Source: Candidatus Omnitrophota bacterium
GTDB lineage: Bacteria > Omnitrophota > Gorgyraeia > B26-G9
DNA length: 64,000 nucleotides
Direction: 5' to 3'
Assembly: GCA_043806135.1 (NCBI GenBank)
Contig: JAZDHG010000098.1
Coordinates: 1,660-65,659, forward strand
The notes beneath the pieces were generated by a model. It ran no database searches. It was given only the letters and a program-made list of their open reading frames with translations, and was not told the DNA's origin. Of this stretch, positions 31,688-54,573 are shown one piece after another. The position numbers were made by a program, and so were the translations under genes. The first letter of the stretch is position 1, and each line of letters opens with the position of its first letter.

Positions 31688-31691
31688 CCAG

Positions 31692-31890: not shown

Positions 31891-32040
31891 TTCACGTGTT
31901 TTTAAAACGCTTTATAAAGTAATTTAATTTTGAACAAAGAGATAAGTTAAGTATGTAAAATTTTTTAAGATTTTATTTAAAGTATTATTTTGAAGAATGT
32001 AATAACTTTCGTTTAAGCGTAAGGCAAATTAGGTGAGCAC

Positions 32041-32400: not shown

Positions 32401-32408
32401 TTGGAAAA

Positions 32409-35400: not shown

Positions 35401-38400
35401 TCAAAGTTAATCGAATCAAAAACCGGGAACTTTGGCGACCATCTGCTTTATCTATTCAAGAAGAACGGGCAGCAGAATTTTTGGATGGAGTAAACACATC
35501 TCCTTTTATGACAATATCATTCCCAGTAACAAAGGACAAAAAAGATATAATCAAAGCTGGGGCTCATCCAGGAGATGGAACGACTCGTCCTCAAACAGTT
35601 TCTCGTGAGGCCAATCCTCTTTATTGGGAATTGCTTGGTGAAATGGGAGAACGCACAGGCGTTCCAGGAGTCCTTAATACATCTTTTAATAGGCGAGGAC
35701 CTATTGTTGAGACACCGGAAGATGCCCTCAATACGTATTTTTATGGCGAAGGATTAGATGTGTTAACCATAGGGCATTATATTCTAAGGAATAAGGAAAA
35801 AATCGTTCCAAGTGTGTTGAATGGTGGAGATGAAGTAGATTTGAAAGAATTTTTCAAGTTAGGAAAAAATAAATCCGAACCATTAAACAAAGTGTGGGAT
35901 GAGTTTTGGCTACAAGCCAATAACGTAGCGGCTTCAAGAGCTTCTGCGCATCAGCACTACTTGATAGTTAATGTTGATGATGCTGGTGAGAATCGTGAAA
36001 TCTTAAGAATTCCATTAATTAAAGAAATGTTTCAAGAGGGGCCGCGTGAATTTATGGTTGCAGACCTTGCCGCAAGAATTCAAAAAGGCATAGGGAGTGA
36101 TAAACTGACAACAATAGCTATTGAAACAACAGCACCTCAATTTAGAGAGATAGTTGTTGATTTATTTGAAAAGTTAGCCCCGGAAAATCTTAAAAGAAAT
36201 TGGAATATTGTTAAATTAGGTTTTGGCGAATGCTCGTCTCTTAAAGAGGAGCTACAACAAAGACGAGTTAATTCTACGGAAGCTGTTAAGGACTTAAATA
36301 GGAATATTAAAAAATGGCAAGGAGAACAGCGTATTGATCCTATTTTTATTGCTGTTACGGGACCAGGCGAAAGCGGCAGAACTTCCATTGTGAATGGATT
36401 GCAAGAGAAACATTTTGTGATTAATGCCGATAGATGGAAGCTATCAGAACATCAGATAAATAATTTGCTCAACTATCCATTTTCGCATATGAGATTTAAT
36501 GATTATGTCAATGCGTTAAAAAGATTACAACAGGGTCAAACAGCTATGATCCCGTTACAGAAAACTCTATCAGCAAAATCGCCACAACGAGGGTTTGCTC
36601 TTTTAAATGAAGAAACAAAAGAAAAATATAAGTATATTTTGGTAAAGGAAAACAGTCAGGTTTGGATCCGACATGACGGACAACTATTTGAGGAAGTTAG
36701 ACCTGAGGCGTCTGATATTTTTATTGTCAATACATCTGTTGCATTAAACTATCCGATATTGCGAAATTTATTTGAAGAAGTTTATTTTGTCGCATCCAAT
36801 GAAGAATTGAAAGAACCATCGAAAAAAGGCGAAGATGGCATTATTCCACCCCACAGGCGTGGAGTTGAATTTGCAACAACTATCGTTGAATTAGATGATG
36901 CCCAAACTTTTTGGACTCCGCTTAAGACCCCGCAGCCAATTAAGCAAATAGACTCAATGTGTGTAGCCCTTGCGAATTATTGTCCAGTGGGTTGTTCATT
37001 TTGTTTTATGCGGTCAGTTCAAGATAAAAGAAAAAGAATAGCATTAGGGTCTAAAGCTATAGAAAGAATTCTTTCTTATGCTAAAGAAAATCAAGTTTTT
37101 CGTATTATGTTATCAGGGGGTGAACCTCTTAGCGAGATTGCAACTGTATTAAGGGTAATACGCGAGGCGGAAGTGCCGCATATCACGATTTTTACTAGTG
37201 GCTATTTTGCAGTAAATGCATCTCGGACGGAAGAGGTCCTTGATCAGTTAGTTGCGGCTGTTAGAGAAAGGAAGCAATCGGGAAAGAAGCCTGTACATAT
37301 ACTTTTTGAAGTAAGTGTTGATGAGTTTCATGGCCGGCGTGTACCGCAAAAGAATATTATCAATATTATCAGAGAATTCGAAAAGGATATGGGTGCGAAG
37401 TACTCAGATATGACCCTTGAAGTTAAGGGCATACTAAATGATGGGGATACAATTCCAGAAATAATGCAAACATTAGGGGGAAAGATCCAGGAAGTTCATC
37501 AAAGCGGACCTTTTCCTACTAAACCGATTATTCTCCCATCTGGCTACACATTTAATGTTCGCTATTCTGAAATAAAACTTGTAAAAGACACGATAAATAC
37601 GAAATTATCAAAAAAACGGTTTGATAGGGTCTATCAAAGAAGATTGGAAGATGATATTATCTATATGGGGAGGGGAGAGAAAAGTGGCGCTAGTTTCTCT
37701 GTTAATTATGACGGAGTGGTCTCTGTTAATGACTATTTAGCAAAAGATTTCGTGTTGGGGAATGCAAATAATGATAACTTCAGTGAGGACGTTGACAGGC
37801 GTTTAAGGTTTGACCCTCTTGTTGTTGCATTACGAGAAATTGGATTAAATACTGTTTTAGACATTACTTCTCGTTTGCGACCAAATATACGGAAAAAATC
37901 GATAGAAATGAACAATCAGTTTATTACAATATCCGATATTTTGGAAGACGAAGAATTGAGAGAAAATATCTATAAGGAATTAATTCAATTGATAGAAAAA
38001 AAAGAGAATCCTGCGTTAAAAGGATCAGCTAATAATGTGCAGTTCTTAAATACTGGTGTTGCTGACTTGACTAAAAAGGTATTTATCATTGGTGATGGCC
38101 ATATTGAATTAGGTGGTTCAGTGACCGTAAAAGGCAATAGAAGCCAGATTAGATTCCAAGGAGAAAATCAAGAGAACTTAGTTATTCGGATGGGTAACGG
38201 CTTGGTAATGGAAGATTGCTTTATTTCTTTAAGAAGGAGCCAAGGGGAGGCTCGTGTGGAATGGCAGGGCGATACTTTGATAATAGAGGAAATGGATATT
38301 GGGGAAAATGTCAGAATCACTAAAGGTGGGGAAATCATGAATGTTCCATGGATAGGTGATGATGTAGAGATTGCAGGGTCATTTTTGATTGAGATGGATA

Positions 38401-39938
38401 ATGCGGGCGTTGGCGACCGAACAAAAATTCTAAGTAATAGCGAAGCAAGAATGAGTACTATTGGTTCAGATGTTGTTATTGACCAGCAATCAAAGATATT
38501 TAAATCAATAGTATCTTCAGGAGCTAAAATCATAAATACGAGTTTAGTGGGGGGGCAGGATGAACTCGTTGGTGGATGGAGACAAAAAGATGACGGAGGA
38601 AAAGGGCGCGGTGTGGTTATTGGAAAGGGCGTGGAGTTTCGTAATGGGATTGCACAACATTTAGGTGTTAAAGAAGGCAAAATAAATCCAATAACTGTGG
38701 CTGATGGAGTAAATCTGGATGGAGTTTTTCTGATTTCCGAAAGGAACAAAGGCATACATGCAATCGTTGATTTAGAGCTCGAGGTAGGTCAACGTGTTTA
38801 TATTTTTGATGGTGTTATTGTTGATGAAGTGGTTAAAAAACAAATTCTAGATAAGCTTGATACGTCGGACATTGTTAAAGTAAGTTTTGAAGAGGGGATT
38901 GCCAAAGTAGAAAGTGTTGCTGGATCAGTGGTAACGCCGGAATTATTAAATGTACCCCAGCTAAAAGAGGAATACGCAACTCAAAAGACTCGTGGAATAC
39001 CAAAGGTATACTCAATAGATACCATACAAGAAGCTAAAGATTTAAACGATCTTTTGTTAAAGAGTGATATTTTTATTAGTCGAGCAGGGGAGATCCTGAC
39101 TTCAAGAGGCGAGAGGGATGACATTGCGGTTCGGATTGGTCAGGGAGCATTTGTTTACCCTGGGGTAGAGATTTATGCGAATGAAGGACGAACAGTTAAT
39201 ATAAATGTTTGGGATTTAGGTAATAGGGGTGGAGCTCTAATAATTGCTGATGAACAAGATGTTCAACTTGGCCCCAAGAATCGGCTGGCAGGCCGTATAG
39301 TTGCGGCAGTTATCAGAGATGTAAATGTCGATGCAGAATTTAATAATTTTGGAGGTATTGCGGATACTATTACAGGAAATGCTAAGATTACTATTAGGAA
39401 TCAAGGCATGCTTAAAAATGCTAATCTTTCATCTGATGGAAAAGGCAAAGGTGAGATCGTTTGGGGGTCGTATCAAGGTGAAAACGTTGATATCGAAGTA
39501 ACTGGTGATGTTGTCGTGGGTTTATCATATGGTGGAATAATTCAAGGACAAAGTTTAAGTGATGGGAGAAACTCAATAAAATTAGTTTCAGGATTTAATT
39601 CTGGTTATAGGTCAGTAATTATAGATGAACGTCAAGAACCGGTTGAACAAATTATTTATGATAGTCTTTATAATGCAACGGATTTTATAATGAAGAGTTT
39701 TTCTTCGCATTCTCCTAAGTATGGTGGTATTGATATGACTGATATAAAGTTCAATCGTAGGGGGGCTGGTGTTGATATCCAAATTGATCCGGTGGTGTTG
39801 CAGAGCATGCTCGAACGGGGAATAAATGGATTTACTCCAGTGATTATCAATTTAACACCGATTAATAACATTATGCCTCTTTTAGGACTTGAACCGAAAA
39901 GCAGAGAAAAGGAGTATGAGTTGTCGAGTTTAAATTAA
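32409..39938 (+). CDS. giant multidomain protein (2509 aa): signal peptide; NodU/CmcH-type carbamoyltransferase; degenerate P-loop; radical-SAM core; C-terminal beta-helix-like repeats
   Basis: Likely true start is the ATG at 32415 (MKSLTLKK...). Signal peptide ends ...SIIPPGYAQS. Carbamoyltransferase N domain spans 33985-35110 (VYVLGVVRPSHDAGAALIKDGVLVGAIEEERLNLDKHANAYFPKEA; HHKAHAAAAYYSSGF; VMTGGLALNIASNGKL; FVPAYPADDGTSVGAAL). Carbamoyltransferase C domain spans 35310-35800 (GPRALGNRSIL, SPFMTISFPV, NTSFNRRGPIVETPEDA). IAVTGPGESGRTS lies at 36346-36390. The radical-SAM motif CPVGCSFC lies at 36981-37004, followed by MLSGGEPL. Glycine-rich hexapeptide-like beta-helix repeats span 38080-39560. 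Confidence 0.85.
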   Translation: MLMKSLTLKKQKAVYYRANSLIIAFAFVCTSIIPPGYAQSITTLNLPKPGVMIPQSPAFVPVLLKGMTIYPDNPLRFDFIVDNGNTNFIPDEIKEESNRLVKYFLAAMTIPQNDLWVNLSPYEANKIIPTELGKTELGRDMLAQDYILKQLTASLLYPEKEPGKAFWAKIYMKAKDKFGTAEIPINTFNKVWIIPEEALVYENGNAVYIVKSRLKVMLEEDYQALHQNRKSVKLKVDQSSDLQTKGAALISSQIAREIILPEIEREVNEGKNFASIRQIYQALILAKWHKETIKESLMSKVYIDQKKIMGVDLSDPMVKDKIYAQYVEAFKKGVFNFIKEDYDQVSQKVIPRKYFSGGEKFGDIPLKRTKDARQLNSSPIGDYYKLVVKIDPQMKTGNDDHEIKNLAGVNPSRGSPQLKETNADKLEFDAEGLDIAFKIFDSKADVPELLKKISGIHGVERVDWKDGVLTIISKTEAVKVHPKDLEINERHQIKDRFYVKPISACGEMAVKIYHRDSRDEIKRPNKPVYVLGVVRPSHDAGAALIKDGVLVGAIEEERLNLDKHANAYFPKEATRYLLEANGITWEDIDHIAVTYDYNFYQETPSSKEPHYYYRQKYNLPFKNSYRRYDINKFQSFLEGMAVDYGTGYIPPVTFVKHHKAHAAAAYYSSGFTEPTLVVSIDGQGEDESTTIWIAKDGQLKRIARTTPFTHSLGHFYHIMTVYLGYQRHDEGKVMGYAPYGAPRNLQEERTVNQLREIMRELIWFNRKTEQIEMNQENFELTTISAFPGVKFSESFLQRLVKIIPPMPESKSGRDLQPEDRKRAHLAFAMQERVEQVIDDMVSYYLNENKETKGVKYVVMTGGLALNIASNGKLIEKGTVQADKFFVPAYPADDGTSVGAALSVSTEEYGLDVQNKVQKISFGKTYSDEEIQRTLECFGLEEGVDYERIQNDEQLVNEVTDAIVHDKTVAWFQGGSELGPRALGNRSILNRLTDPEGNLKVNRIKNRELWRPSALSIQEERAAEFLDGVNTSPFMTISFPVTKDKKDIIKAGAHPGDGTTRPQTVSREANPLYWELLGEMGERTGVPGVLNTSFNRRGPIVETPEDALNTYFYGEGLDVLTIGHYILRNKEKIVPSVLNGGDEVDLKEFFKLGKNKSEPLNKVWDEFWLQANNVAASRASAHQHYLIVNVDDAGENREILRIPLIKEMFQEGPREFMVADLAARIQKGIGSDKLTTIAIETTAPQFREIVVDLFEKLAPENLKRNWNIVKLGFGECSSLKEELQQRRVNSTEAVKDLNRNIKKWQGEQRIDPIFIAVTGPGESGRTSIVNGLQEKHFVINADRWKLSEHQINNLLNYPFSHMRFNDYVNALKRLQQGQTAMIPLQKTLSAKSPQRGFALLNEETKEKYKYILVKENSQVWIRHDGQLFEEVRPEASDIFIVNTSVALNYPILRNLFEEVYFVASNEELKEPSKKGEDGIIPPHRRGVEFATTIVELDDAQTFWTPLKTPQPIKQIDSMCVALANYCPVGCSFCFMRSVQDKRKRIALGSKAIERILSYAKENQVFRIMLSGGEPLSEIATVLRVIREAEVPHITIFTSGYFAVNASRTEEVLDQLVAAVRERKQSGKKPVHILFEVSVDEFHGRRVPQKNIINIIREFEKDMGAKYSDMTLEVKGILNDGDTIPEIMQTLGGKIQEVHQSGPFPTKPIILPSGYTFNVRYSEIKLVKDTINTKLSKKRFDRVYQRRLEDDIIYMGRGEKSGASFSVNYDGVVSVNDYLAKDFVLGNANNDNFSEDVDRRLRFDPLVVALREIGLNTVLDITSRLRPNIRKKSIEMNNQFITISDILEDEELRENIYKELIQLIEKKENPALKGSANNVQFLNTGVADLTKKVFIIGDGHIELGGSVTVKGNRSQIRFQGENQENLVIRMGNGLVMEDCFISLRRSQGEARVEWQGDTLIIEEMDIGENVRITKGGEIMNVPWIGDDVEIAGSFLIEMDNAGVGDRTKILSNSEARMSTIGSDVVIDQQSKIFKSIVSSGAKIINTSLVGGQDELVGGWRQKDDGGKGRGVVIGKGVEFRNGIAQHLGVKEGKINPITVADGVNLDGVFLISERNKGIHAIVDLELEVGQRVYIFDGVIVDEVVKKQILDKLDTSDIVKVSFEEGIAKVESVAGSVVTPELLNVPQLKEEYATQKTRGIPKVYSIDTIQEAKDLNDLLLKSDIFISRAGEILTSRGERDDIAVRIGQGAFVYPGVEIYANEGRTVNINVWDLGNRGGALIIADEQDVQLGPKNRLAGRIVAAVIRDVNVDAEFNNFGGIADTITGNAKITIRNQGMLKNANLSSDGKGKGEIVWGSYQGENVDIEVTGDVVVGLSYGGIIQGQSLSDGRNSIKLVSGFNSGYRSVIIDERQEPVEQIIYDSLYNATDFIMKSFSSHSPKYGGIDMTDIKFNRRGAGVDIQIDPVVLQSMLERGINGFTPVIINLTPINNIMPLLGLEPKSREKEYELSSLN

Positions 39939-40269
39939 ACTTGTAGTAGTAGAAATCATTTATTCCTACAGATGACAAAACGATTTACAGCGAAGACACA
40001 GCATCTCAAAACGTAGATATTATTGCTGAATTCAATTATTTGGAATTAAATCGCACTAAATAATCAATTGATTAATCGGTTTAACTCTCTCTCCTTGCTT
40101 TGTAATTAGAGAAGCTAATTTAGTGCTTTGCATTTACTCTAGATGGGTTTACGTGTGTTTGGAGATATTTCAGTTTTTAACAACCATAAACTAGATTCTA
40201 TACTTATTGGCGATAAGCCATCACTACTGTCCCATTATAAGCTATAAGTTTTTCTTAGCATCTGCAACT

Positions 40270-40460
40270 TAAATACTTCTTATTACTTGCGGCATATAGT
40301 TTGCAGCATTCAGCCAGATTTTTTAACTTTTCTTCAAACGCTAATCGTTATACGCTAACATATGTATTCGCAATATGTTATGAGCTTGCAAAGCTTCTAA
40401 TCCTATGGTATACTTTGCTGTAATTTTTACTTACTTTTTAAAGTCCTTTAATTTTAAAAT
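40270..40460. repeat. ~190-bp intergenic direct repeat, copy A (second copy at 41770-41950), containing a strong promoter
   Basis: Near-identical 94-nt core (tat(t/c)(c/a)caatatgttatgagcttgcaaagcttctaatcctatggtatactttgctgtaatttttac(t/a)tacttttttaaag) plus ~100 nt of more diverged upstream similarity (gcagc(a)ttcagcc...aaacgctaatc). Confidence 0.8.
40387..40415 (+). promoter_or_regulatory. sigma70-like promoter TTGCAA-17-TGgTATACT (in repeat copy A) driving the MntA/HepT pair
   Basis: TTGCAA at 40387-40392, 17-nt spacer, TATACT at 40410-40415 preceded by TGG. Confidence 0.55.
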
Positions 40461-40758
40461 GATCACACAGATTTTAGAAAAATGATTACACCGATTAATA
40501 ATAAATCAACGCGGTAACGCGTTAACGCATATTTGCATATAGCTGATAGCTCATGGCAAAAGCAAAAAAAGAGTAAAAAGTTTATGGTCAATGAGAAAAG
40601 CAAAAAAGCTCTAAGCTTTTATAGCTGAGTGCTCCCCTTTTAATCTCCATAACCCTATTAAATTTGCTTTTATTTTTTTCTTTTGCTATACTTATAATTA
40701 AATTAGACACGAAGTTATTTAATGCTGATTGGATATATAATTTTAAAAAGGCAGAAAA

Positions 40759-41160
40759 ATGAGTATATTATTAAAAGAAGACATAATCAGGAAAGCAACG
40801 GATTTCTTTTTAAAAAGGCCGGAAGTTAAATTTGCTTATTTGTTTGGGTCTGTCGCTCTTGGAAAGAGCAATAAATTGAGTGATGTGGATATTGCTGTGT
40901 TTATTGACAATGATTATTTAAAAGAAAATAAATTTACTTATGGATATAAAGCAGAGCTTATAACAGAGCTTATTAAAGTTCTAAGAACAAATAGCGTGGA
41001 TTTAGTTATTTTAAACAGTGTCCCTGTTCTGCTTAAGCATAAGGTTTTGGTAGGAGGTAAATTGCTTGTTTGCCGTGATGATTCAGAAAGAATTAGATTC
41101 CAAGTGAAAAGCCTGAATGAATACAGTGATCTTAAATGTTTGTTTTTAACGCATAATTAG
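40759..41160 (+). CDS. mntA: MntA-type minimal nucleotidyltransferase, antitoxin of a HepT/MntA type VII TA pair
   Basis: GS-x9-11-DxD Pol-beta NTase motif in YLFGSVALGKSNKLSDVDIAVFID. 133 aa. Directly followed (11-nt gap) by a HEPN/DUF86 gene. Confidence 0.8.
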   Translation: MSILLKEDIIRKATDFFLKRPEVKFAYLFGSVALGKSNKLSDVDIAVFIDNDYLKENKFTYGYKAELITELIKVLRTNSVDLVILNSVPVLLKHKVLVGGKLLVCRDDSERIRFQVKSLNEYSDLKCLFLTHN

Positions 41161-41171
41161 AAGAGGCCGCA

Positions 41172-41591
41172 ATGGTTGACGCGCAAATATTGGTCGTAAA
41201 GCTTAAGGAATTAGAAAAATATATCGCTGAATTAGAAAAATTAAAAACAACTTCCCTTGAAACGCTGTCAAAGGATTTAAACAAAATATGGTCACTTGAA
41301 CATGGTTTGCAGTTATCGATTCAAATAATTATTGATATTGGCAATCATATTTTAGCTGATATGAAAGAAAGCAATATAGAAACTTATACTGATGTTATTG
41401 ATCTGTTAGGTGTGAAAAAAGTAATTCCCGTTGATTTCGCGAAACGTATACGCGCAATGGTTGGGCTTAGGAATATTCTTGTTCATGAATATGTAGAAGT
41501 GGATTTAAAACAGCTTTATTCAGTATTGCGGAATAATTTAGATGATTTTAAAGAATTCGTTAAATTAATTAGATGTTTTTTGAAGAAATAA
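41172..41591 (+). CDS. hepT: HepT-type HEPN (DUF86) toxin of the type VII TA pair
   Basis: R-x4-HxY HEPN motif in GLRNILVHEY. 139 aa. Gene order NTase-then-HEPN is typical of MntA/HepT. Confidence 0.8.
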   Translation: MVDAQILVVKLKELEKYIAELEKLKTTSLETLSKDLNKIWSLEHGLQLSIQIIIDIGNHILADMKESNIETYTDVIDLLGVKKVIPVDFAKRIRAMVGLRNILVHEYVEVDLKQLYSVLRNNLDDFKEFVKLIRCFLKK

Positions 41592-41769
41592 TTGTTGCGT
41601 TAAATGTTAATTAAGTTTTTAGCTGTCCTATGAGCCATGAGCTAGAATCTGTCATCTTTTTTCCAACCTCCAAATTACAAACCAAGTTTCTTATTTCCCC
41701 TTGTGACCTTTTGACTTGTGTCTGATGACTTTATTTCTGTTTTTTCCACCATCCCCAAACCAACCACTT

Positions 41770-41950
41770 TTTCATTGCTTGCGACATGCAGCTTGCAGCT
41801 TCAGCCCAAATCGTTCAATTTTTCTCTAAACGCTAATCCCTAGGCTCTAAACGCTGTATTTACAATATGTTATGAGCTTGCAAAGCTTCTAATCCTATGG
41901 TATACTTTGCTGTAATTTTTACATACTTTTTAAAGGCCTTTAATATTAAA
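41770..41950. repeat. ~190-bp intergenic direct repeat, copy B (matches 40270-40460), containing a promoter
   Basis: See copy A. The embedded promoter is TTGCAA (41878-41883), 17-nt spacer, TATACT (41901-41906). Confidence 0.8.
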
Positions 41951-42005
41951 TAATAAAATTATTTTACGAAAACGTGCAAACTCGATAACGTGAAAGGAAT
42001 ATGTC

Positions 42006-45000
42006 ATGAACAATTTACTTTCCAAATCCTGGTTTCGCTTTATTTCCATTATACTTATCCAGTCATTTTTAATATTAGATATTGCCTGGGCAGGAGGCAC
42101 AGAACTTAATCTTAAGAAAAATTCCGATACGCTTTCCGCCCCGGTTGAAATCTCCCAGCAGATGTTTAATACAAGTTTTGGGAAACTTTATGAGATGAAC
42201 GTTCCTAAGGCGGCTAAGAATTTATCTGTTGGAATAGAAGAAAAAAAATCAAAATGGTCATTATCACAAATATGGCAATCTTTTAAGAAAAGTTTAAAAA
42301 ATAATCTGAGTTTGTTGCATCAGGCTTTTTCAATGGACAAAAAATCTGATGATGACAATGATTTTACGTCAGGCCTTAGATCTATCTTAATCCTGGCAAT
42401 GCTAACCCCCGCTCTTATTGCTTTAAGCTCAAGTCTTGGCTGGACAGGAGATAAAAATTTAATAGAAAGTACAAATGGGCTTATTTCTTATATCCCATTT
42501 AAAGAAATAAAAGATAGCACATATGCTTTCTATTACAACCTTTCCATACAGGGGCAAGTGGTTTTGTTTTATACAATTCTGCCGGTAATGCTCGGTCTTG
42601 TTATTGCTGGAGTTAAGGGTGTATTCGATAGTATAAGTAATAGAAATATTAAAAAAGCTGATCGCTCAAAACTACAATCATTTATGATTCCTCTTATACT
42701 CTCTCCCGCACTTATTGCCTTAAGTTCCAGTCTTAGCTGGGCAGGGGAGGGCACATCAATAGATGGCTCAATAATAGGCGGGGTGTTGGGTACATTGGCC
42801 CTTGCTGTAGGTATCGGGGCGGTGAAGTTCAGGAAAAATATACGCCTTGGTTTAAAGAAGTCATCAAATAAAATTACAGATAAAACTGCCAATGTGTTGA
42901 CGCCAATTTTACAGAAAGTTGTGAAGTCAAAATATTTCTGGGCGGGTCTTGTTGGGCTTTCGGTTTTTGTGAATGGGGGGGGTGTTCCAATGAATGTTGC
43001 TGTAATAGCAACTGTGATATCAGTTTCAGCAGCAATTTCGATTTTGTTTACAACTAAAATATCCCGTTCAACTAAAAAATTACTTACTCTATTATTGTCA
43101 GTGGTTATTTTTACTATTATGGGGTGTTCTCTTCATGAAACTAAAGTTACGAGCAGAAGCTTAACCGAATATCAAAATGTTGGTGATAATAAAGATACAT
43201 TTTCAAAAATAAGTAAAGAAAAAATGAGCTTTAAACAATTGGTTGCTATTTTAGAAAACGAAAATGAGCAGGAAGAAAATAGAATTAAAGCAGCTTTAAT
43301 GTTAAGTGACTTTAAACATAAAAAATTAGAGGATATACTCATAAAACAATTATATGCAACTAAAAAAGTTGATATAAACTTTGAATCAGGGCGAGAAATT
43401 GGTTATATCCGTAGTTTTCATTATGATAAACTAGATGCTAATAAATTGCAAGCAACAGCTGCTTGGATATTGGGGGAAAGGAAGAGTGAAAAAGCTGTTG
43501 AGAACCTGATACTTTTATCTGAATCAGGAGATAACTATGATCATTATCCTAAATTGAATAACTATATTTCTGCTTACTGGCCTCAATATACGGATTTGAT
43601 TGATTCCCGCTTAAATCTTCAAATTAATAGTATTATTGCTTTGGGAAAGATAGGCAACAAAAAAGCAGAGAAGTATTTAAAAACAAGGATGCTAAATAAT
43701 AATAATTGGCAAGTAGATTACGCGGTGTTATCTGCGCTATCTGAATTGGGAGATGAGAAAGCAATATTTTATGAGAAAATTTTTCGAAGTGATATTAGTT
43801 TTGTAGATAGAATAAGCAATGTTGCTAAACAAATAATCCGTGAATACCAGGAAAAGGGATTAGAAAGTCGTGTTAGAGAATATCTGATCGAAGTTTTTGT
43901 GGCAAATTCTAAATGGATAAATAATAGCTTGTATTCTAATCTTCGCTATCAAATGACGGCAGGTGTCTTGCTAAAGTTTTTAGGCGGAGATGATGTTGAT
44001 AGAATCTTTGCTGAATTTTCGAATAACATAGGGTCGAGAAGTATTGGTTATGATTTAAAAGTATTCTATGATCGTCTATTATCAAAGCATGATGATTATT
44101 TCGTTGATTCTTTAGATGTAAGACAATTAATTGATAATTTAAGTTTTACAGATCGAGTAGTGCTATTAACTCGATTAGAGAAGTTATTTGCTCTTAATGA
44201 AGAAGTAAAGCGAACAAATCAATGGTTTCTATTACGAAGGAATGAAATGAAGCCTTCAATAAGGGATAGGGTGGGCAGAGAAATCCCAAAACTAAAAGAG
44301 TTTATTATTAAAGAAATTTCTTCTATTGATGGTTTCGAAGAAATTGTAAAAGAAATGTGCTTTCTTAGGGGGCAAGGTGCTCTTTTTAGAGAAATAAAAG
44401 AGAAACTAAAACAATTTGAATATAAAGATGATAATAGTTCAAAGGAAAGATCGAATATCAGCAAGATTATAATAGCAGTTTTAGCTTCTCCCGTTCTTGT
44501 TGCCTTAAACTCAGGTATTGGCTGGGCGGGGGACGGGGGGCAACAGACGGCAGCGGGATTTAGTAGCCTTTTGAATGGGCAAACGGCACTGGGGATTTTG
44601 TTGGCTGCAGCTGCGTTAATAAGTTTAGACTTTGTATTTTATCGTCACTTTTCAACTAAGATTAAACAATGGGTTTCAAATATTAAGAGCAAGCTAAAAG
44701 ATGATAATACTTCAAGTTATAAAGTAATATCCCCCTCTGAACATGGAAAAAGCAGGCTTTCTGAAAGTCGTGATGAGGCTCAGAAGATCATTTCGTTTTT
44801 AGCCCCACAGGATCAACTGCCTGAAAAAGTAAACGCACTACTGGCGTTTGGTAATGAAGATCTCGAGACGCCTATCCGGGCGGCCAAAGTATATTTTGAT
44901 ACAAAGCCTGAGGTTGTTGTTTTTGCCGGTGGTATTGGTCATTCTACACAAAATCTTTGGGAAATAGGCAGCGAATATTTAGGCGTAGATCTGGAAACAT

Positions 45001-47975
45001 TGAAAGGCTTAAGCGAGGCAGAAATTTTTGCCTGGATTTTTAAGGAAGAATTGAAAAAACTTGGCATGCCTGCCGAGGAAATAGGCAAAATAAAAATATT
45101 ATTGGATACAACCTCACGCAATTCTCAGGAAAATGCCAGAAACAGCTTAAAACTGCTTTATAATAACGGATTTCTAGCAGGCCAGATGAGTATTATTCTT
45201 ATGCAAAAGCCATTGCTGCAAATAAGAGCAGGCGCGAACTTAAGAAGAGAAATTAAGACCATGGAAACAGAGCTTGGGGAGAAATTTTCAATACAATGCT
45301 TTAATCATGCACCATATGTGCCGGATATAAGCTTGATGCAAGATGCAGAATTAGAAGAAATCACAAATGATGCCTTGGGTGAGATTGAAAGGCTGAAGAT
45401 GTACCCTGCTCTGCGTTTTAATTTCATTGATACAATTGAAATTCCAGAAAATGTAAACAAAGCGTATTATGAACTTAAAAAAAATCTTTACCCGGACCGA
45501 TCTATTGAATCTGAGGGAAAACTTGTTGCCGGGTTAATTAAGGAACAGGATAGAACAAGGACTGATATAGATAGGCCTATCCAGGTTGAGTCAGGAGAAT
45601 ATAAAGCAGGTTCGTCTTTTATTAACTTTGCGACTGAACGTTATCAGGGATCCTTATATTTGATTGAAGGAAGCGCTAATGCACAGATAAAAGGTGAAGA
45701 GGGAATTATTCAAACCATAGAATTGGGTAAAGGAGATATTATTAATCTGTTTGTTAACTCTGATATTGTTTTTACAGAGGATTCTAAATTTTATATTTTT
45801 AGGCAGACCGATGCTTCTCAAACTTCAGTAGATCATAAAGAAAAACTTGATGGTGAGGTAACCATTGATTCACGCAATGTTATCGAAAAAGATAGGAATA
45901 TAATTGCTGACGTTTACAGAGATGCGCGAGGTGACTTAATAGCTACTGTTCATAGAATTGATATGGCTTCGCCGGCAAAAATGGTGATGACTACGCCGCG
46001 CAGCGCTGCTATTGGTATTGGTGTAAAAACAGCTATTGGAGATGAAGCTGCTCATCGTCATGAATTAGACGGAAAAAGCAAGATAGAGATTGCACTTTGC
46101 CGAATGGGGTCTCTGACTGCCTATGTTGGGAATAAAGAGGGTAAAGATGTTAATGAAGTCGATGTTAAACAGAATGAGCTGTTAATTCTTTATCCAGACA
46201 GTACTCATGGATTTGAATTCAATAACGCTAAAATGGCAATTATTATCCAGGATCCCGGACGCGGGATTGACAAGGTTGATGCTAAACTTGAAAAAACAAC
46301 TGAAATAACGCTTGGTGCAGCGGAAAAACTTAAGACAGAGCCGGAATCGGTAATTACGGAAGCTATTAAACTTCAGGAACAGGATAAACAGGAAGAGGCA
46401 ATGGCTCTTATCCTTAACTCTTTGCTGGACAAGAACCTTAATCCAGCGGATTATGCGTCTTTTTACCAGGTTTTTGATAAAGAAAGCGGCGATTTTATCG
46501 GATATATGCTTGACGGCAAAGTATATATCAGAGGGGTAGGGTATGAATATAAAGAGTTACTTAATGGCGGGTATAATCCTCTTAAACATGTGCTTCGTGC
46601 CATTTCTGATTTATCTTTTGAAGAAATTATTTCGCTGCCATATGCAGGCAGCTCTTTTAACAAGAATGGGAGGTTGATCGGCACGGTTATTAAAGCAGAT
46701 GATTCGAGGGCACAGAACGGGCCGTATTTGTATACAGCCCAGGAAAATCCTTTAAGAGTCAGGAGTTTTCACGCCGCAAAAGGAACAAAAAGCGAAAAGT
46801 ATCTGCTATCGCCGGTCTCTGAACCTAATCCGTTTGGCAACAGGCCGAGACAGGAAGTATGGCATGTGTTAAAGGGAAAAATCAGGTGTGTGTTCTATAC
46901 CAAAGACAATGAGTATATAGGCGAACAGGTCATGTCTAAAGGCGACACTGCTTTGTTTTCAGAAGCTCATCAGGTGTTTTTTGAAGAAGATTCTATAGTC
47001 CTTGAAATAAGGCAAGGCCCGTGCTCTGCTGATGAGTCGGATAGGCAGATTCTGGATGATGTTGATAATGCTGTTTCAGGATATATAGAAAATGCCGCAG
47101 ACCTTTCGTTCACCGCATTCAAAAAGGAAAACAGGTTAGTTGGAGCAGTAGTCAAAGCAAATCATGTGCCTTTTGACAAGCTGCAAAAATTCTCCGCAAT
47201 GCCTGATCCTATCCAATTTAACAGCTTTTACAAGGATAAAGGCATGAGGGGAACAAAACTTTATCACCCTCCTGTACAGGGTGAAAGTCCCTTCAAGGAC
47301 CAGCCGAGACAGGAAGTGTTATTTATCCTCAAAGGTAAGGTAAGGGTTAAATTTTCTACTGTGGAAAATATCGATGTGGCAGAGGAAATATTAGAGGCCG
47401 GGGATGCTGTTTTGTTTACAGAGGGACATGTGGTTGAGTTCCTGGAAGATACGGTTTTTTTAGAAGCTAAACAAGGACCGTATCCGTCTTCAGGCAATAA
47501 AGATGATGATCAGATTGTATTAAATGAAAACATTGCTCCGGAAAATACAAAATTCGGAAAGCTGGGAATTAATTTTGAACATATTACAAAAACAGCACAA
47601 CTTAACCCTGAGCTGCCGCTTTTTGACTTGATTCTTCAAGATAGTAATTCTCTGGATCCAACCCTGAAGGGAAAAGTTGACCAGTTACAACAGATGGCAA
47701 CAGCGTTCTTTATTAAAGGGGAATTTGATAAAGTAATAGAAACTATTCAAGAAATAATCAAGATATATCCAAATAGTTTTGAAGTGATGCGGCTAATAAT
47801 GGACGGAGTGAAAGAACATAAAGCATTAGCTTCACGCGAACCTGAGATGAAGCTTTTTATTGAATCTAAAGGGACTGTTCTTGAACTGACCGGGGATGAA
47901 ATGCCGTTAAAAGATGCTGTAGGAGCCATTGAAGCAGGTATGAGAGCCGGACAGTTTTTGATGCAGGCGATATAA
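42006..47975 (+). CDS. giant membrane-associated protein (1989 aa): conserved leader; reiterated hydrophobic-helix+WAG modules; DUF218 (SanA/ElyC/YdcF-like) domain; two tandem cupin-like domains
   Basis: RBS AAAGGAA upstream of the ATG. Leader MNNLLSKSWFRFISIILIQSFLILDIAWAGG. Internal modules PALIALSSSLGWTGD (42381-42452), PALIALSSSLSWAGEG (42681-42752) and PVLVALNSGIGWAGDGG (44466-44540). Several other TM helices lie in 42540-43130. DUF218-like segment at 44815-45250 (LLAFGNED...VVFAGGIGHST...TTSRNSQENARNSLKLL). Cupin-like repeats at 46680-47030 and 47140-47490, each with PRQEV...LKGK(I/V)R...GD(T/A)(A/V)LF(S/T)E(A/G)H. Confidence 0.85.
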   Translation: MNNLLSKSWFRFISIILIQSFLILDIAWAGGTELNLKKNSDTLSAPVEISQQMFNTSFGKLYEMNVPKAAKNLSVGIEEKKSKWSLSQIWQSFKKSLKNNLSLLHQAFSMDKKSDDDNDFTSGLRSILILAMLTPALIALSSSLGWTGDKNLIESTNGLISYIPFKEIKDSTYAFYYNLSIQGQVVLFYTILPVMLGLVIAGVKGVFDSISNRNIKKADRSKLQSFMIPLILSPALIALSSSLSWAGEGTSIDGSIIGGVLGTLALAVGIGAVKFRKNIRLGLKKSSNKITDKTANVLTPILQKVVKSKYFWAGLVGLSVFVNGGGVPMNVAVIATVISVSAAISILFTTKISRSTKKLLTLLLSVVIFTIMGCSLHETKVTSRSLTEYQNVGDNKDTFSKISKEKMSFKQLVAILENENEQEENRIKAALMLSDFKHKKLEDILIKQLYATKKVDINFESGREIGYIRSFHYDKLDANKLQATAAWILGERKSEKAVENLILLSESGDNYDHYPKLNNYISAYWPQYTDLIDSRLNLQINSIIALGKIGNKKAEKYLKTRMLNNNNWQVDYAVLSALSELGDEKAIFYEKIFRSDISFVDRISNVAKQIIREYQEKGLESRVREYLIEVFVANSKWINNSLYSNLRYQMTAGVLLKFLGGDDVDRIFAEFSNNIGSRSIGYDLKVFYDRLLSKHDDYFVDSLDVRQLIDNLSFTDRVVLLTRLEKLFALNEEVKRTNQWFLLRRNEMKPSIRDRVGREIPKLKEFIIKEISSIDGFEEIVKEMCFLRGQGALFREIKEKLKQFEYKDDNSSKERSNISKIIIAVLASPVLVALNSGIGWAGDGGQQTAAGFSSLLNGQTALGILLAAAALISLDFVFYRHFSTKIKQWVSNIKSKLKDDNTSSYKVISPSEHGKSRLSESRDEAQKIISFLAPQDQLPEKVNALLAFGNEDLETPIRAAKVYFDTKPEVVVFAGGIGHSTQNLWEIGSEYLGVDLETLKGLSEAEIFAWIFKEELKKLGMPAEEIGKIKILLDTTSRNSQENARNSLKLLYNNGFLAGQMSIILMQKPLLQIRAGANLRREIKTMETELGEKFSIQCFNHAPYVPDISLMQDAELEEITNDALGEIERLKMYPALRFNFIDTIEIPENVNKAYYELKKNLYPDRSIESEGKLVAGLIKEQDRTRTDIDRPIQVESGEYKAGSSFINFATERYQGSLYLIEGSANAQIKGEEGIIQTIELGKGDIINLFVNSDIVFTEDSKFYIFRQTDASQTSVDHKEKLDGEVTIDSRNVIEKDRNIIADVYRDARGDLIATVHRIDMASPAKMVMTTPRSAAIGIGVKTAIGDEAAHRHELDGKSKIEIALCRMGSLTAYVGNKEGKDVNEVDVKQNELLILYPDSTHGFEFNNAKMAIIIQDPGRGIDKVDAKLEKTTEITLGAAEKLKTEPESVITEAIKLQEQDKQEEAMALILNSLLDKNLNPADYASFYQVFDKESGDFIGYMLDGKVYIRGVGYEYKELLNGGYNPLKHVLRAISDLSFEEIISLPYAGSSFNKNGRLIGTVIKADDSRAQNGPYLYTAQENPLRVRSFHAAKGTKSEKYLLSPVSEPNPFGNRPRQEVWHVLKGKIRCVFYTKDNEYIGEQVMSKGDTALFSEAHQVFFEEDSIVLEIRQGPCSADESDRQILDDVDNAVSGYIENAADLSFTAFKKENRLVGAVVKANHVPFDKLQKFSAMPDPIQFNSFYKDKGMRGTKLYHPPVQGESPFKDQPRQEVLFILKGKVRVKFSTVENIDVAEEILEAGDAVLFTEGHVVEFLEDTVFLEAKQGPYPSSGNKDDDQIVLNENIAPENTKFGKLGINFEHITKTAQLNPELPLFDLILQDSNSLDPTLKGKVDQLQQMATAFFIKGEFDKVIETIQEIIKIYPNSFEVMRLIMDGVKEHKALASREPEMKLFIESKGTVLELTGDEMPLKDAVGAIEAGMRAGQFLMQAI

Positions 47976-48470: not shown

Positions 48471-49343
48471 ATGGAAAAAAATTTGATTTTAAAGACGATA
48501 TTGATTTTGCTGATGAATAGTTTTTTATTGCTTGATATCGCTTGGGCAGGGGGTGTTAATTTGTCTGTGTCTGAAAATTCGGATACCCTTGCTGCCCCTA
48601 TACAGATAAATAAAACTTCATTTTTCAATACAGCCTATACCATCAATGTAAAACCCCAAATACTTACGAGTGAAAAAGGAGAGATGCCTGCTGAACTTGC
48701 CAAATTGCTTCCCAGAAGGAAGGTGGATAGATGGGTTTGGAATGATGAATTAAATATGTATATAGGTATTTATGCTAAAGACAATACGGAAGAAAAAAAG
48801 AAGAATTTGGAATTGTCCGGCCCAGAAGAACAAACATCTGCTCAACTAATTGAAAAACGCCGTATTCCTATATTTGAATCAAAAAGGGATGTAATTCTTT
48901 GCATAGGATTATTGGCGACGTTTTATGTCGCGGTTATGGTCCCGCTGATAGCGGGGGTTTGGAATCGTGTCTATGACATCTTCCCGAGAATGTTTATGTC
49001 GTATTCCATATGTATGGGTGGGGCTATTGCCATAGCTGCTATAGTTTCTGCGTTAATAATCCCTAATTTACTGCCTTGGCAAAAAATCGGGTTGGCTTTA
49101 AGTGAAATATTTAAATCTTCATCTACAGAGCCAGAACCGATAGTTAGCAACAAAAAAGATCAGTATTTGCTGAATAGTCAGAATTTAGACAGCTTGCCGG
49201 GAAATCTATATCAAGAGCCTGTACAGGCTGGAAAAACACCTGAGCCTATAGCCTTTAGCGAAGCGGTGAAAAGCCTTGATAAGGGGTTGTTAGAGAATAA
49301 CCTTCTTTTATTTAATCTTAAACTTATTGCTGCTTCTTTATAA
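48471..49343 (+). CDS. membrane protein (290 aa) carrying the same conserved N-terminal leader as giant proteins 3 and 1
   Basis: N-terminus ...LILLMNSFLLLDIAWAGGVNLSVSENSDTLAAPIQINKTSFFNTAYTINV aligns with G3 ...LIQSFLILDIAWAGGTELNLKKNSDTLSAPVEISQQMFNTSFGKLYEMNV. Two to three C-terminal TM helices. RBS AAGGGA upstream. Confidence 0.6.
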   Translation: MEKNLILKTILILLMNSFLLLDIAWAGGVNLSVSENSDTLAAPIQINKTSFFNTAYTINVKPQILTSEKGEMPAELAKLLPRRKVDRWVWNDELNMYIGIYAKDNTEEKKKNLELSGPEEQTSAQLIEKRRIPIFESKRDVILCIGLLATFYVAVMVPLIAGVWNRVYDIFPRMFMSYSICMGGAIAIAAIVSALIIPNLLPWQKIGLALSEIFKSSSTEPEPIVSNKKDQYLLNSQNLDSLPGNLYQEPVQAGKTPEPIAFSEAVKSLDKGLLENNLLLFNLKLIAASL

Positions 49344-51307: not shown

Positions 51308-53206
51308 GTGAATAAAAAACCGGTACTTTTAACTGTCCTGAGCATGAGCGTATTTTTTATGGTAGCCAATGTTTTTGCCGCTCCTGCGCCTGCTTTTGAG
51401 CTGGATGACAAGGGAACGGAACAGATCGTCGACTATGAGAAATACGGCGAGTTTCAAAACGTGGACAAAGCCGGTTATAAATATAAAATAAAAGACCAGC
51501 AAGGATTAGCAAATGCAGTAGGGGAAGGAATCTATCCTAATACAAAAAGCGTGCTGAAGTCCCCTCAGTTTAAAAAATATAAGGATGAAAAAAAACTCCT
51601 GGGCAGTCATTGGGCTTTTGTGAACACCTCGGATCATCAGGCAAATTTTTACCGCTGGGCAACAGCAGCGGAAAGTCCGGGTGTGAAATTGTTCTATACT
51701 GCCCAGGCCCTGGAAAATGCCATGCAGATCAGGCATGCGGTCAAGGCTTATTATGCCCTTGTGGTGAATTTTCCCAAAGAAGTCGGAACGACTTACTGGG
51801 GGACCCCTTGGTATGTGGGGCCGGCATCACTGGACAGGATACTTTATCTGACGAGAAAATATCCTGAGATGGGGATAAAACTTGTCGGTGCTAATATAAC
51901 GGTTGAAAATCGTTACGATGATGATAGGAGTAATGATGTTTTTGTAGTCGATCCCGGTAAATTGGTTTTTTGCGATCCGAATGATGTTGTAGAAAAAAGA
52001 GCGGATCTAAGTAAACTATCAGTCATAGAAAACAAAGAATTCGGAGAGATCAGTTTTGTTAAATATGAAAACGGCCATTGGCAAATGCGTCTTAAAGACG
52101 AGCCTTTTATGGTCAAAGCAGTTGCTTATCAGCCGTCTAAAATCGGCCAGAGCCCGGATATCGGAACGCTTGAGGATTGGTCAAAGGCAGATGAAAACAA
52201 AAACGGTAAAATTGACAGCCCATATGATGCGTGGGTAGATAAGAATAAAAATAATATTCAGGAAGGCGATGAGCCGGCAGTCGGTGATTTTCAGCTGATG
52301 AAGGATATGGGTGTTAACGTCATCAGAGTTTATCATCATGCTTTTGTTAGTAATAAAAAGATATTTCAGGATTTGTATAAAAATTACGGGATCCGGATCG
52401 TAATCGGTGATTTTCTGGGAATGTACGCGGTAGGTTCCAAAGCCCCCTGGGATCCGGGCACTGATTATTCTGACCCCCAGCAGCAGCGCAATATGCTTGA
52501 ATCGGTAATGAAGATGATAAATGAATATAAGGATGAGCCATGTGTTCTGATGTGGGTTTTAGGCAATGAAACTAATTACGGAACGGCTAACAACGCAGAT
52601 GTAGAGCCGCAAGCCTACTATCATTTTGTAAATGAAGTCGCGAAAAAAATAAAAGAAATAGATCCGAATCATCCGGTAATGATTTGTAACGGCGATATCC
52701 AATTTCTTGATATCTTTGCCCAAAAGTGTCCGGATGTTGATGTGTTCGGGATCAATTCGTATAGAGGTAAACCTGGATTCGGATATTATAATTTCTGGCT
52801 GCCGGTAAAAGAACTTGCCGATAGACCGGTGTTTATAACAGAATACGGCTGCCCTGCTTATGGACACAAATATAGCCGTGAATATGCGGAAAATTTTCAA
52901 GCGGAATACCTTGTGGAAAACTGGATGGATATGGTAATTAACAGCGCGGGAGAGGGAGCAGGTGTTTCTATCGGCGGCTCTTTGTTTGAATTTGTTGATG
53001 AGTGGTGGAAGACAGGAGCTCCTCCCGGATATCCTGATATTATTCAGGATGTAGTGCCTAATGTGGGGGGGCCTTTTGTGGACGGATGGTATTACGAGGA
53101 ATGGTTTGGAGTAGTCAGCCAGGGAGACGGTACGGATTCTCCTTTTATGCGTCAGCTGCGTAAGTCTTATTTCGAACTGCAAAAAATCTGGAAAGAGAAA
53201 GAATAA
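51308..53206 (+). CDS. secreted glycoside hydrolase, clan GH-A TIM-barrel (GH2/GH5-like), paralog 1
   Basis: GTG start with RBS AAAGGGTGA. Signal peptide (…VANVFAAPAPA). Asn-x-x-Arg-x-x-His context VNVIRVYHH. Acid/base motif MWVLGNETNYG. Nucleophile motif FITEYGCPAYG (compare ITEYG of GH2 beta-glucuronidases). Paralogous to the 54574 gene. Confidence 0.65.
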   Translation: MNKKPVLLTVLSMSVFFMVANVFAAPAPAFELDDKGTEQIVDYEKYGEFQNVDKAGYKYKIKDQQGLANAVGEGIYPNTKSVLKSPQFKKYKDEKKLLGSHWAFVNTSDHQANFYRWATAAESPGVKLFYTAQALENAMQIRHAVKAYYALVVNFPKEVGTTYWGTPWYVGPASLDRILYLTRKYPEMGIKLVGANITVENRYDDDRSNDVFVVDPGKLVFCDPNDVVEKRADLSKLSVIENKEFGEISFVKYENGHWQMRLKDEPFMVKAVAYQPSKIGQSPDIGTLEDWSKADENKNGKIDSPYDAWVDKNKNNIQEGDEPAVGDFQLMKDMGVNVIRVYHHAFVSNKKIFQDLYKNYGIRIVIGDFLGMYAVGSKAPWDPGTDYSDPQQQRNMLESVMKMINEYKDEPCVLMWVLGNETNYGTANNADVEPQAYYHFVNEVAKKIKEIDPNHPVMICNGDIQFLDIFAQKCPDVDVFGINSYRGKPGFGYYNFWLPVKELADRPVFITEYGCPAYGHKYSREYAENFQAEYLVENWMDMVINSAGEGAGVSIGGSLFEFVDEWWKTGAPPGYPDIIQDVVPNVGGPFVDGWYYEEWFGVVSQGDGTDSPFMRQLRKSYFELQKIWKEKE

Positions 53207-53209
53207 GCA

Positions 53210-53827
53210 ATGAAAAGAAGCATTTTTTGGACAACTTTGTCAGGGTGGTTTATTATCCTGTTTTTGTTGGCTTTTGCTTGTTTTGCTCAAGATACAAAAC
53301 AGATAAAGGAAGAAAAACCGCAGGAACTGCTGGTTTATTTTGATAAGGACAGTATTGATAATCATTACTTTGCTTCCCAAAGGATCGGAGATTGCGAGTC
53401 CTTAGAGTTTGATGATCAGTGGAAAGAAAATGTCCAGTCAGGTCAAACCTGCATAAGGATTAAATATAACGCGACCGGACCGTTTGGTTTTGCCGGTATT
53501 TACTGGGTTAATCCCAAGGATAATTGGGGGGATGAAAAAGGCGGTTATGACCTGCGTTTTGCCAAAAAACTCACTTTTTGGGTCAGAGGGGAAAGCGGTT
53601 CAGAACATGTTGCCGTGTTTAAATTTGGAGGACTTAAGGGAGTGTACCCTGATTCGGACAATCATGGAATCGGGCCTTTAGTGCTAAGTGATCAATGGCA
53701 GCAAATAACAGTTGATCTAAACGGCAGAGATATGCGGCGTATAAGTGCCGGATTCAGTTTTGCTATTACAAAAGCACATAATCGTAAGGGTTGTGTTTTT
53801 TATATAGATAATATAAAATATGAATAG
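53210..53827 (+). CDS. secreted beta-sandwich (putative carbohydrate-binding, CBM-like) protein, paralog 1
   Basis: Signal peptide. Shares TCI(R/K)..Y...G..G..G..W.NP..NWG(D/E)(E/V)KGG(Y/F)DL..AKKLTFW..GE.G.E....F..GG..G.YPDSD..GIGP..L...W.Q.T.DL...D with the next gene. Aromatic/Gly-rich pattern typical of jelly-roll binding modules. Confidence 0.4.
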   Translation: MKRSIFWTTLSGWFIILFLLAFACFAQDTKQIKEEKPQELLVYFDKDSIDNHYFASQRIGDCESLEFDDQWKENVQSGQTCIRIKYNATGPFGFAGIYWVNPKDNWGDEKGGYDLRFAKKLTFWVRGESGSEHVAVFKFGGLKGVYPDSDNHGIGPLVLSDQWQQITVDLNGRDMRRISAGFSFAITKAHNRKGCVFYIDNIKYE

Positions 53828-53878
53828 AAACAATTTGATTTGGTTTAATTTGGTTATTAATGAAAGGAGGAAGTTTAA

Positions 53879-54538: not shown

Positions 54539-54573
54539 ATCTTATTTTGTAAAATAAAGGGTAGGGGCTAGGT

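Follow-up and report, generated by a model that had tools for sequence, protein, structure and literature searches.

The locus analysed here raises the question of what a DUF218 domain and a set of cupin-like repeats do behind the membrane modules of a single long protein from Candidatus Omnitrophota. The protein is encoded in the window (the whole stretch of DNA analysed, 64,000 nt, whose numbering is used for all positions) by an open reading frame (ORF) on the plus strand, 42006..47975, which runs for 5,970 nt without interruption and specifies 1,989 amino acids (aa) plus a stop. Its start is confirmed by an N-terminus (aa 1–66) that is 77% identical in a relative, P0001 (P0001, P0002 etc. 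are labels of relative proteins; L001, L006 and L007 designate related loci). The initial annotation had singled out the stretch 44815–47490 (aa 937–1829) as a DUF218 domain with tandem cupin-like repeats behind WAG membrane modules. All of these components are present, as judged from hidden Markov models (HMMs), a BLASTP comparison of the repeat, AlphaFold2 (AF2) models and a listing of WAG motifs. What had been flagged makes up the enzymatic half of a mosaic Omnitrophota protein that is anchored in the membrane. The 460 aa separating the DUF218 domain from the repeats are not a linker: they hold a further bicupin and a domain of ~120 aa.

The DUF218 domain (aa 924–1160; 44775..45485, plus strand, as are all features of the protein given below) contains the three strings by which it had been recognized: LLAFGNED at aa 945 (nt 44838), VVFAGGIGHST at aa 971 (nt 44916) and TTSRNSQENARNSLKLL at aa 1035 (nt 45108). 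Its motifs read FGNE, GGIGHST (with His979), SRNSQEN (with Ser1040 and Glu1042) and PLLQIRA (with Leu1071). Against PF02698 (gathering score 27.6 bits) the whole protein remained under the gathering score (23.5 bits, E = 5.6e-5), whereas the excised domain came out just over it (28.1 bits, E = 2.2e-6), which bears out the DUF218 assignment for the domain taken alone; the homologous cassettes in P0005, P0010 and P0011 scored 44–64 bits. Escherichia coli YdcF (PDB 3CA8) was matched at E = 2.9e-4 in a single-sequence search and at E = 1.2e-18 by a profile made from nine homologous cassettes. The AF2 model of aa 912–1440 has a mean predicted local distance difference test (pLDDT) score of 88 and a predicted template-modelling score (pTM) of 0.75, with pLDDT mostly >90 in the DUF218 domain, and the modelled domain superimposes on 3CA8 with a template-modelling (TM) score of 0.69 at 25% identity (Foldseek).

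When the domain was aligned with its E. coli paralogues, as present in MG1655, identity was 28% to YdcF, 22% to SanA and 17% to ElyC. The function of SanA requires Thr125, His149 and Glu182 (PMC12176290). In the window domain the position of Thr125 is taken by Ser1040 and that of His149 by Leu1071 (Met in YdcF), and the region of Glu182 is not alignable; across the cassette family the His149 column holds Leu, Met or Pro. The motifs FGN, GGxG, SxN and PxxQxR are invariant in the cassette alignment. Sequence and model together place the domain in the YdcF branch of DUF218. Of the composite label SanA/ElyC/YdcF that it had been given, the YdcF part can be kept and the SanA/ElyC part cannot. The role in peptidoglycan and lipid-carrier metabolism that had been proposed for it derives from SanA and ElyC and, because the domain is YdcF-type and does not match the SanA triad, is not transferable to it.

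The repeats that had been noticed earlier form Bicupin II, which consists of barrel A (aa 1548–1682; 46647..47051) and barrel B (aa 1693–1839; 47082..47522). The motif PRQEV occurs at aa 1614 and 1767, giving a repeat period of 153 aa, and the similarity of the two units is significant both by BLASTP (38% identity over 140 aa, E = 1e-32) and by profile–profile comparison (E = 3e-45). The tandem repeat is thus real, but its units measure ~140–150 aa and not ~115 aa, and the protein holds four barrels, in two bicupins, instead of two. No repeat was detectable at the DNA level within the cupin units; a recent tandem duplication was therefore rejected, and the duplication appears to be old. The AF2 model of aa 1480–1845 (pLDDT 86, pTM 0.80) has the double-stranded beta-helix barrel fold of cupins.

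Assigning these barrels to a named family proved less straightforward. Scores were below the cutoff for Cupin_2 (21.8–23.7 bits; cutoff 27.2) and Cupin_3 (15–19.7 bits; cutoff 23.5), whereas Cupin_1 on the excised pair reached 24.1 bits (cutoff 22), although no stretch passed by itself; the matches to cupin models are weak, if mutually consistent. The best named family is TIGR04366 (WbuC cupin), to which the two repeats together score 34.8 bits (E = 1.3e-8, in two stretches; cutoff 42) and a single repeat unit at most 24.1 bits. The same family came first for 5 of 7 repeat units and for all 10 stand-alone relatives tested. Because every TIGR04366 score lies below the cutoff, the window-type cupins are best described as a sister clade of WbuC. 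A sequence search of the PDB with the cupin profiles returned nothing significant (best CooA and HppE, E = 0.01–0.4). In the literature searched, WbuC is mentioned solely as a gene that flanks mcr-9 and blaCTX-M. The description of the cupins as sugar-isomerase-like was not borne out, since comparison with lyxose isomerase, RmlC and FdtA revealed no specific likeness in sequence or structure beyond the generic cupin fold.

The overlooked bicupin, Bicupin I, occupies aa 1166–1421 in the AF2 model and comprises an N-terminal barrel, mid1 (aa 1166–1267; 45501..45806), and a C-terminal barrel, mid2 (aa 1284–1421; 45855..46268). Foldseek matched it to YxaG, OxdC and YlbA (E ~1e-12; TM 0.65 to 1rc6), and hhalign matched mid1 and mid2 to barrel B at E = 2.8e-10 and E = 9.5e-8, respectively. 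On these comparisons the four barrels share a common ancestry, both among themselves and with small WbuC-like cupins that stand alone. They differ in their metal ligands. All four ligands are in place in mid2 (H1350, H1352, E1361 and H1401; codons at 46053, 46059, 46086 and 46206), three of four in barrel B (L1752, H1754, E1770, H1808), two of four in barrel A (Y1599, L1601, E1617, H1655) and none in mid1, which has no His at any of these positions. The H-x-H...E...H pattern of mid2 does not vary among 9 of 9 cassette copies, although these share just 35–70% identity overall; the E(x)6G and PxSxH motifs of this barrel can be made out in the sequence. The stand-alone relatives (130–147 aa) have H, H, E and H at the ligand columns in 22 of 22 cases. 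Barrels A and B show the same pattern of ligand loss in other tandem proteins. The His/Glu sites of the flagged repeats are accordingly incomplete, and the only metal site predicted to be fully competent is that of mid2, outside the repeat noticed in the initial annotation.

We asked how the arrangement is distributed by scanning 1.84 billion representative sequences with aa 912–1989 (HMMER); this gave 335 matches at E ≤ 1e-3, the best 151 of which were covered by domain mapping. The block DUF218-mid1-mid2 was found in P0001, P0005 (twice), P0006, P0007, P0008, P0009 and P0012, that is, in at least seven other proteins of 1.0–6.4 k aa, and mid1-mid2 without DUF218 in P0013, P0016 and the 325-aa P0020. 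Four proteins (P0002, P0003, P0010 and P0011) also contain a cupin pair of the Bicupin II type, and single barrels of this type are present in P0004 (fused to a HAD hydrolase), P0015, P0017, P0024 and P0025. DUF218 and a Bicupin II-type cupin share one polypeptide in P0010, P0011 and P0017, in differing orders. ‘YdcF + bicupin’ is thus a conserved three-domain cassette that is reused in long Omnitrophota proteins, and the cupin pair is a second cassette, reused independently. The named relatives are from Candidatus Omnitrophota, and some are labelled ‘YdcF family’ or ‘ElyC/SanA/YdcF family protein’ by NCBI. A stand-alone protein of 313 aa, P0026, has a YdcF-like domain ~36–41% identical to that of the window protein, fused to an N-terminal winged-helix-like segment; it would be a cytoplasmic, possibly regulatory, YdcF-like variant.

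The part that joins the two cassettes is informative in this respect. The linker domain mid3 (aa 1426–1545, ~120 aa; 46281..46640), recognized by homology to P0014 and P0023, has low AF2 confidence over aa 1480–1546 and no fold was assigned to it. The C-terminal module (aa 1846–1989; 47541..47972), a TPR-like helix pair with weak TPR matches followed by a tail ending ..MQAI-COOH, is ~50% identical to the C-termini of the same two proteins. In P0014 and P0023 mid3 and the C-terminal module directly adjoin, whereas in the window protein the cupin pair intervenes, and P0002 shares aa 1480–1545 together with the cupin pair. This suggests that the pair was inserted as a cassette between mid3 and the C-terminal module. 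The architecture had been called unusual: the fusion behind WAG modules is confirmed, but it is not a one-off, since its blocks recur in other long Omnitrophota proteins. What is new is the architecture, a lineage-specific cassette built from known folds.

Clues to function were sought in the surroundings of the relatives. Three neighbourhoods of stand-alone cupins were informative (P0043, P0070 and P0090), while P0058 and the YdcF-like P0022, P0031 and P0034 lie on short contigs. All three informative cupins are in polysaccharide or nucleoside diphosphate (NDP)-sugar clusters: P0070 and P0090 each lie directly upstream of a DegT_DnrJ_EryC1 gene, amid glycosyltransferases and an NDP-sugar epimerase, and P0043 adjoins genes for a glycosyltransferase of family 4 (GT4), an NTP_transferase and a UDP-glucose dehydrogenase. 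The carbohydrate link proposed earlier for the cupins thereby gains indirect support. Among the long relatives, P0011 carries DUF4922 and CTP_transf_like (cytidylyltransferase-like) domains, P0008 ends in a Glyco_transf_5 (GT5) fragment and P0004, as mentioned, joins a cupin to a HAD hydrolase. On the 3' side of the window gene are genes for a 290-aa protein bearing the leader, an MFS_2 sugar transporter, two clan-A glycosidases and PilZ proteins. S-adenosyl-L-methionine is a ligand of E. coli YdcF, according to Chao et al. (2008) as cited in PMC12176290.

On the strength of the DegT-associated cupin relatives, the domains of the sister proteins, the neighbours in the window and the adenosine-containing ligand of YdcF, the most likely role of the cassette protein would be membrane-tethered processing of a nucleotide-sugar or glycan-type substrate, a proposal to which we give about an even chance of being right. 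Since the fusion is recurrent, the YdcF-like domain and the cupins may be expected to act on the same substrate or in the same pathway. It would fall to the YdcF-like domain to hold the nucleoside or diphosphate portion of the substrate, and the intact metal barrel mid2 (H1350, H1352, E1361, H1401), perhaps along with barrel B, would catalyse a step of the isomerisation or epimerisation type. Barrels poor in ligands could then be structural or substrate-binding partners; such ligand-poor partner barrels occur in many bicupins.

Where this processing would take place depends on the N-terminal half of the protein. The conserved leader (aa 1–66; 42006..42203) has a basic n-region, a hydrophobic helix and a sequence AWA↓GG resembling a signal-peptidase site, followed by ..LSAPVEISQQ. 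It is also found on the window ORF 48471–49343 (E = 1.5e-15), on a 9,129-aa ORF (E = 1.5e-5), on P0014 and P0023 and on PPDK-like/HAD proteins in L006 and L007. The hydrophobicity profile predicts, besides the leader helix, ~9 further helices, including three internal hairpins that repeat the leader helix and the motif (S/G)W(A/T)G. A polytopic membrane block (aa 125–377; 42378..43136), defined by Kyte-Doolittle peaks and motif listing, contains ~7 hydrophobic helices with two of these hairpins (..SSLGWTGD and ..SSLSWAGEG). It is followed by a HEAT-repeat region (aa 381–815; 43146..44450; Pfam HEAT_2, 48.1 bits, E = 1.5e-12, in three stretches) and, from hydrophobicity and motifs, by the third WAG hairpin (aa 816–880; 44451..44645), in which ..SGIGWAGDGG precedes the return helix and a K/R-rich flank comes after it. 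The hydrophobic hairpin ends 44 aa before the DUF218 domain. By positive-inside counting, the K/R-rich flank behind the last helix speaks for a place in the cytoplasm for aa 881–1989, which would fit YdcF-like, nucleotide-dependent domains. However, hydrophobicity and positive-inside counting did not yield a self-consistent topology model: when all WAG loops are placed outside, either the WAG of the leader falls inside or a K/R-rich loop stays outside. A 147-k aa Omnitrophota protein has likewise been described with metabolic Pfam content and yet a predicted signal peptide and transmembrane helices (10.64898/2026.06.07.730766).

The WAG modules and the leader have features of their own. The internal modules at 42378–42440, 42672–42746 and 44466–44540 repeat the hydrophobic helix of the leader and then carry one or other of the signal-peptidase-site-like sequences S-W-A↓G, G-W-A↓G and G-W-T↓G, each followed by a return helix; they might serve as signals or cleavage sites within a polyprotein. 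Many proteins of the lineage combine the leader (..SFL.LDIAWAGG..LSAP..), in the window at 42006–42203, 48471–48640 and 2894–3060 and further in L001, L006 and L007, with a C-terminal tripeptide x-(A/S)-(I/A/L), e.g. QAI, NAI, RAI, QSI or ASL, in the window at 47961–47972, 30269–30280, 1158–1169, 2427–2438 and 49329–49340. Taken together, the window, L001, L006 and L007 gave 36 plus-strand ORFs of ≥120 aa; the tripeptide ends 7 of 7 leader-matching ORFs and 16 of 36 overall (chance ~3–4%). The enzymes that bear the leader are unrelated (PPDK-like, HAD and the YdcF cassette). Leader and tripeptide look like a lineage-specific pair of sorting signals.

Several observations weigh against processing of a nucleotide-sugar or glycan-type substrate at the membrane. 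The signs of topology conflict: against the K/R-rich flank, which suggests a cytoplasmic C-terminal half, stand the signal-peptide-like leader directly before the cassette in P0001 and the signal-like helices that open P0020 and P0022. Of the four barrels, two have no plausible active site, and in the YdcF-like domain His979 of GGIGHST is replaced by Gln or Asp in two cassette copies and Glu1042 by Asn in one. TIGR04366 remains below its cutoff of 42 bits for the window barrels and likewise for the stand-alone relatives (25–38 bits in the latter), sugar-isomerase HMMs (e.g. FdtA) found no match in the window protein, and the structural neighbours of the bicupins are generic, with dioxygenases, decarboxylases and seed globulins ranking above sugar enzymes. 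We know of no biochemical function for YdcF, WbuC or any member of the cassette family, and the substrate class is guilt by association from three informative neighbourhoods.

Some of the same observations could be read differently. As the initial annotation had it, the protein might be a SanA/ElyC-like periplasmic envelope factor that acts on peptidoglycan or undecaprenyl-linked intermediates with the assistance of sugar-isomerase cupins. Its domain does lie within the DUF218 superfamily and has Ser1040 at the position of SanA Thr125, the signal-peptide-like leader is followed directly by the cassette in P0001, hydrophobic signal-like segments open the stand-alone P0022 and P0020, and the surrounding genes are carbohydrate-active. 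We nevertheless consider this quite unlikely, because the domain is nearer to cytosolic YdcF (28%) than to SanA (22%) or ElyC (17%) and has YdcF-specific motifs, because the His149 that is essential in SanA is Leu1071 here (Leu, Met or Pro across cassettes) with Glu182 not alignable, and because SanA and elyC are described as mostly confined to Enterobacterales (PMC12176290). The degenerate barrels lend themselves to another explanation, in which the domains catalyse nothing and act as binding or scaffold modules within a large protein of the surface or membrane, serving for instance in ligand or glycan recognition during attachment to host cells. It is in keeping with the loss of most ligands in two of four barrels, with the variation of the GGIGHST His and the QEN Glu across cassettes, with the HEAT and TPR elements in the same protein and with the proposal that giant Omnitrophota proteins are adhesins or coats (PMC10066038). 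In mid2, H, H, E and H stay unchanged in 9 cassettes of 35–70% overall identity, which argues instead for a functional metal site, and FGN, GGxG, SxN and PxxQxR of the DUF218 domain are equally invariant, so that a purely non-catalytic role seems unlikely, if worth some weight.

With a 3-His-1-Glu site in mid2 and a 2-His-1-Glu site in barrel B, the cupins might also be oxygenases or decarboxylases of the non-haem metal type that turn over a small aromatic compound or organic acid without relation to glycans, with the YdcF-like domain supplying or binding a cofactor. The top structural matches (gentisate and quercetin dioxygenases and oxalate decarboxylase) agree with this, but they reflect generic bicupin geometry (9–16% identity, high root-mean-square deviation) and there is no sequence-level relationship to those enzymes. 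Genomic and domain contexts point to glycan metabolism, and Omnitrophota are largely anaerobic, which speaks against O2-dependent chemistry; we find this explanation very improbable. That the gene is an artefact, either a chimeric assembly or neighbouring genes fused by a sequencing error, could be suspected from P0001, a syntenic relative with 66% identity over aa 912–1478 that lacks aa 67–911 and has an unrelated C-terminal half. However, the 5,970-nt ORF has no interruption, both junction-flanking segments show in-frame conservation, the cassettes recur within numerous independent long proteins obtained from different samples and gene order on both sides of the ORF is syntenic with L001, all of which makes an artefact extremely hard to credit.

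The minus strand across the ORF holds no meaningful ORF of ≥50 aa, so that overlapping minus-strand genes were rejected, and the two larger neighbouring proteins contained no further DUF218 or cupin copies when checked for them. Immediately upstream of the gene are an MntA-type nucleotidyltransferase (40759–41160; Polbeta, 71 bits) and a HepT-like RNase (41172–41591; 100 bits), a toxin–antitoxin pair that is absent from the syntenic L001. Compared with L001 8891–13099, positions 31049–47975 of the window have three extras: a 2,509-aa gene (32409–39938), this toxin–antitoxin pair and, within the YdcF-cupin gene, the WAG/HEAT insertion of 845 aa. At the synteny boundary a Y1-transposase-like ORF (31049–31687) is conserved with 66% identity. 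Downstream (51308–55857) come two pairs of tandem paralogues: the clan-A glycosidases (51308–53206 and 54574–55857), ~32–34% identical, and two small secreted proteins (53210–53827 and 53879–54538), which are ~43–48% identical and have no Pfam match. The N-terminus of the product of 62403–63107 (..RSAVTLIELLVTMGILVLL..) resembles the prepilin motif of type IV pilins and pseudopilins, which is consistent with the type II secretion system and type IV pilus genes reported near Omnitrophota giant genes.

A recurrent fusion of YdcF- and WbuC-type domains suggests that the two work in one pathway and, as a Rosetta-stone link, points to nucleotide-sugar chemistry. To our knowledge, YdcF-type DUF218 proteins and WbuC-type cupins, both widespread, have no assigned reaction. 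A bolder version of the proposal would be that YdcF-like domain and WbuC-like bicupin form an unrecognised, Omnitrophota-specific enzyme pair, exported or displayed on the membrane through lineage-specific leader/C-tail sorting, which would remodel intermediates of the nucleotide-sugar or lipid-linked glycan kind where the cell meets its host or prey; as a whole we think it rather improbable. If it is true, the fusion would give a first hint of what WbuC cupins and the YdcF branch of DUF218 do, namely act on a nucleotide-sugar-type substrate. The analysis also defines two reusable enzymatic building blocks for the mostly unannotated giant proteins of the Omnitrophota and sharpens an existing puzzle, that of cytoplasm-type enzyme domains behind signal-peptide-like leaders.

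Comparison with known systems helps to delimit what is particular to this protein. With YdcF the window domain shares its fold, the GGIGHST, S-x-N-x-x-E-N and Q-R-R segments and a C-terminal GE.xRL...P extension; YdcF, however, is a free-standing cytosolic protein of 266 aa, whereas the window domain is embedded in a 1,989-aa membrane protein and is followed by a bicupin. SanA and ElyC, which are anchored in the inner membrane and periplasmic, resemble it in Pfam superfamily, in the membrane helix upstream and in a Ser at the Thr125 position, but differ in the replacement of the essential His149 by Leu1071, in lower identity and in the YdcF-specific motifs found here. Bicupins with one active and one degenerate barrel are known (E. 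coli YlbA/ureidoglycine aminohydrolase, DR1152, PSPTO_0244 and YxaG); identity to these is 9–16% with no sequence-level relationship, and unlike them both window bicupins derive from WbuC-like barrels. WbuC (TIGR04366) itself has the same barrel size (~130–145 aa), and the stand-alone relatives share its H-x-H...E...H, but all scores are under the curated cutoff (25–38 versus 42 bits) and barrels A and B of the window protein are short of two ligands and one ligand, respectively. The FdtA and QdtA ketoisomerases are encoded together with their DegT-family aminotransferases. The stand-alone relatives resemble the NDP-hexose 3,4-ketoisomerase cupins (FdtA/QdtA/WxcM) in being small, in having H-x-H and in lying, inside glycan clusters, directly upstream of DegT_DnrJ_EryC1 genes, a resemblance to be taken as analogy only.

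The closest parallel for the protein as a whole is offered by the giant proteins of Omnitrophota (West-Roberts et al., bioRxiv 10.1101/2023.11.21.568195; bioRxiv 10.64898/2026.06.07.730766). DUF218, YdcF and cupin have no mention in these two reports or in an Omnitrophota survey (PMC10066038). The giant proteins come from the same lineage and likewise combine a signal-peptide-like leader, transmembrane helices and enzyme domains, and pilZ, glycoside hydrolase and pilin-type genes are found near the window gene too, but they exceed 10 k aa, whereas the protein described here has ~2 k aa.

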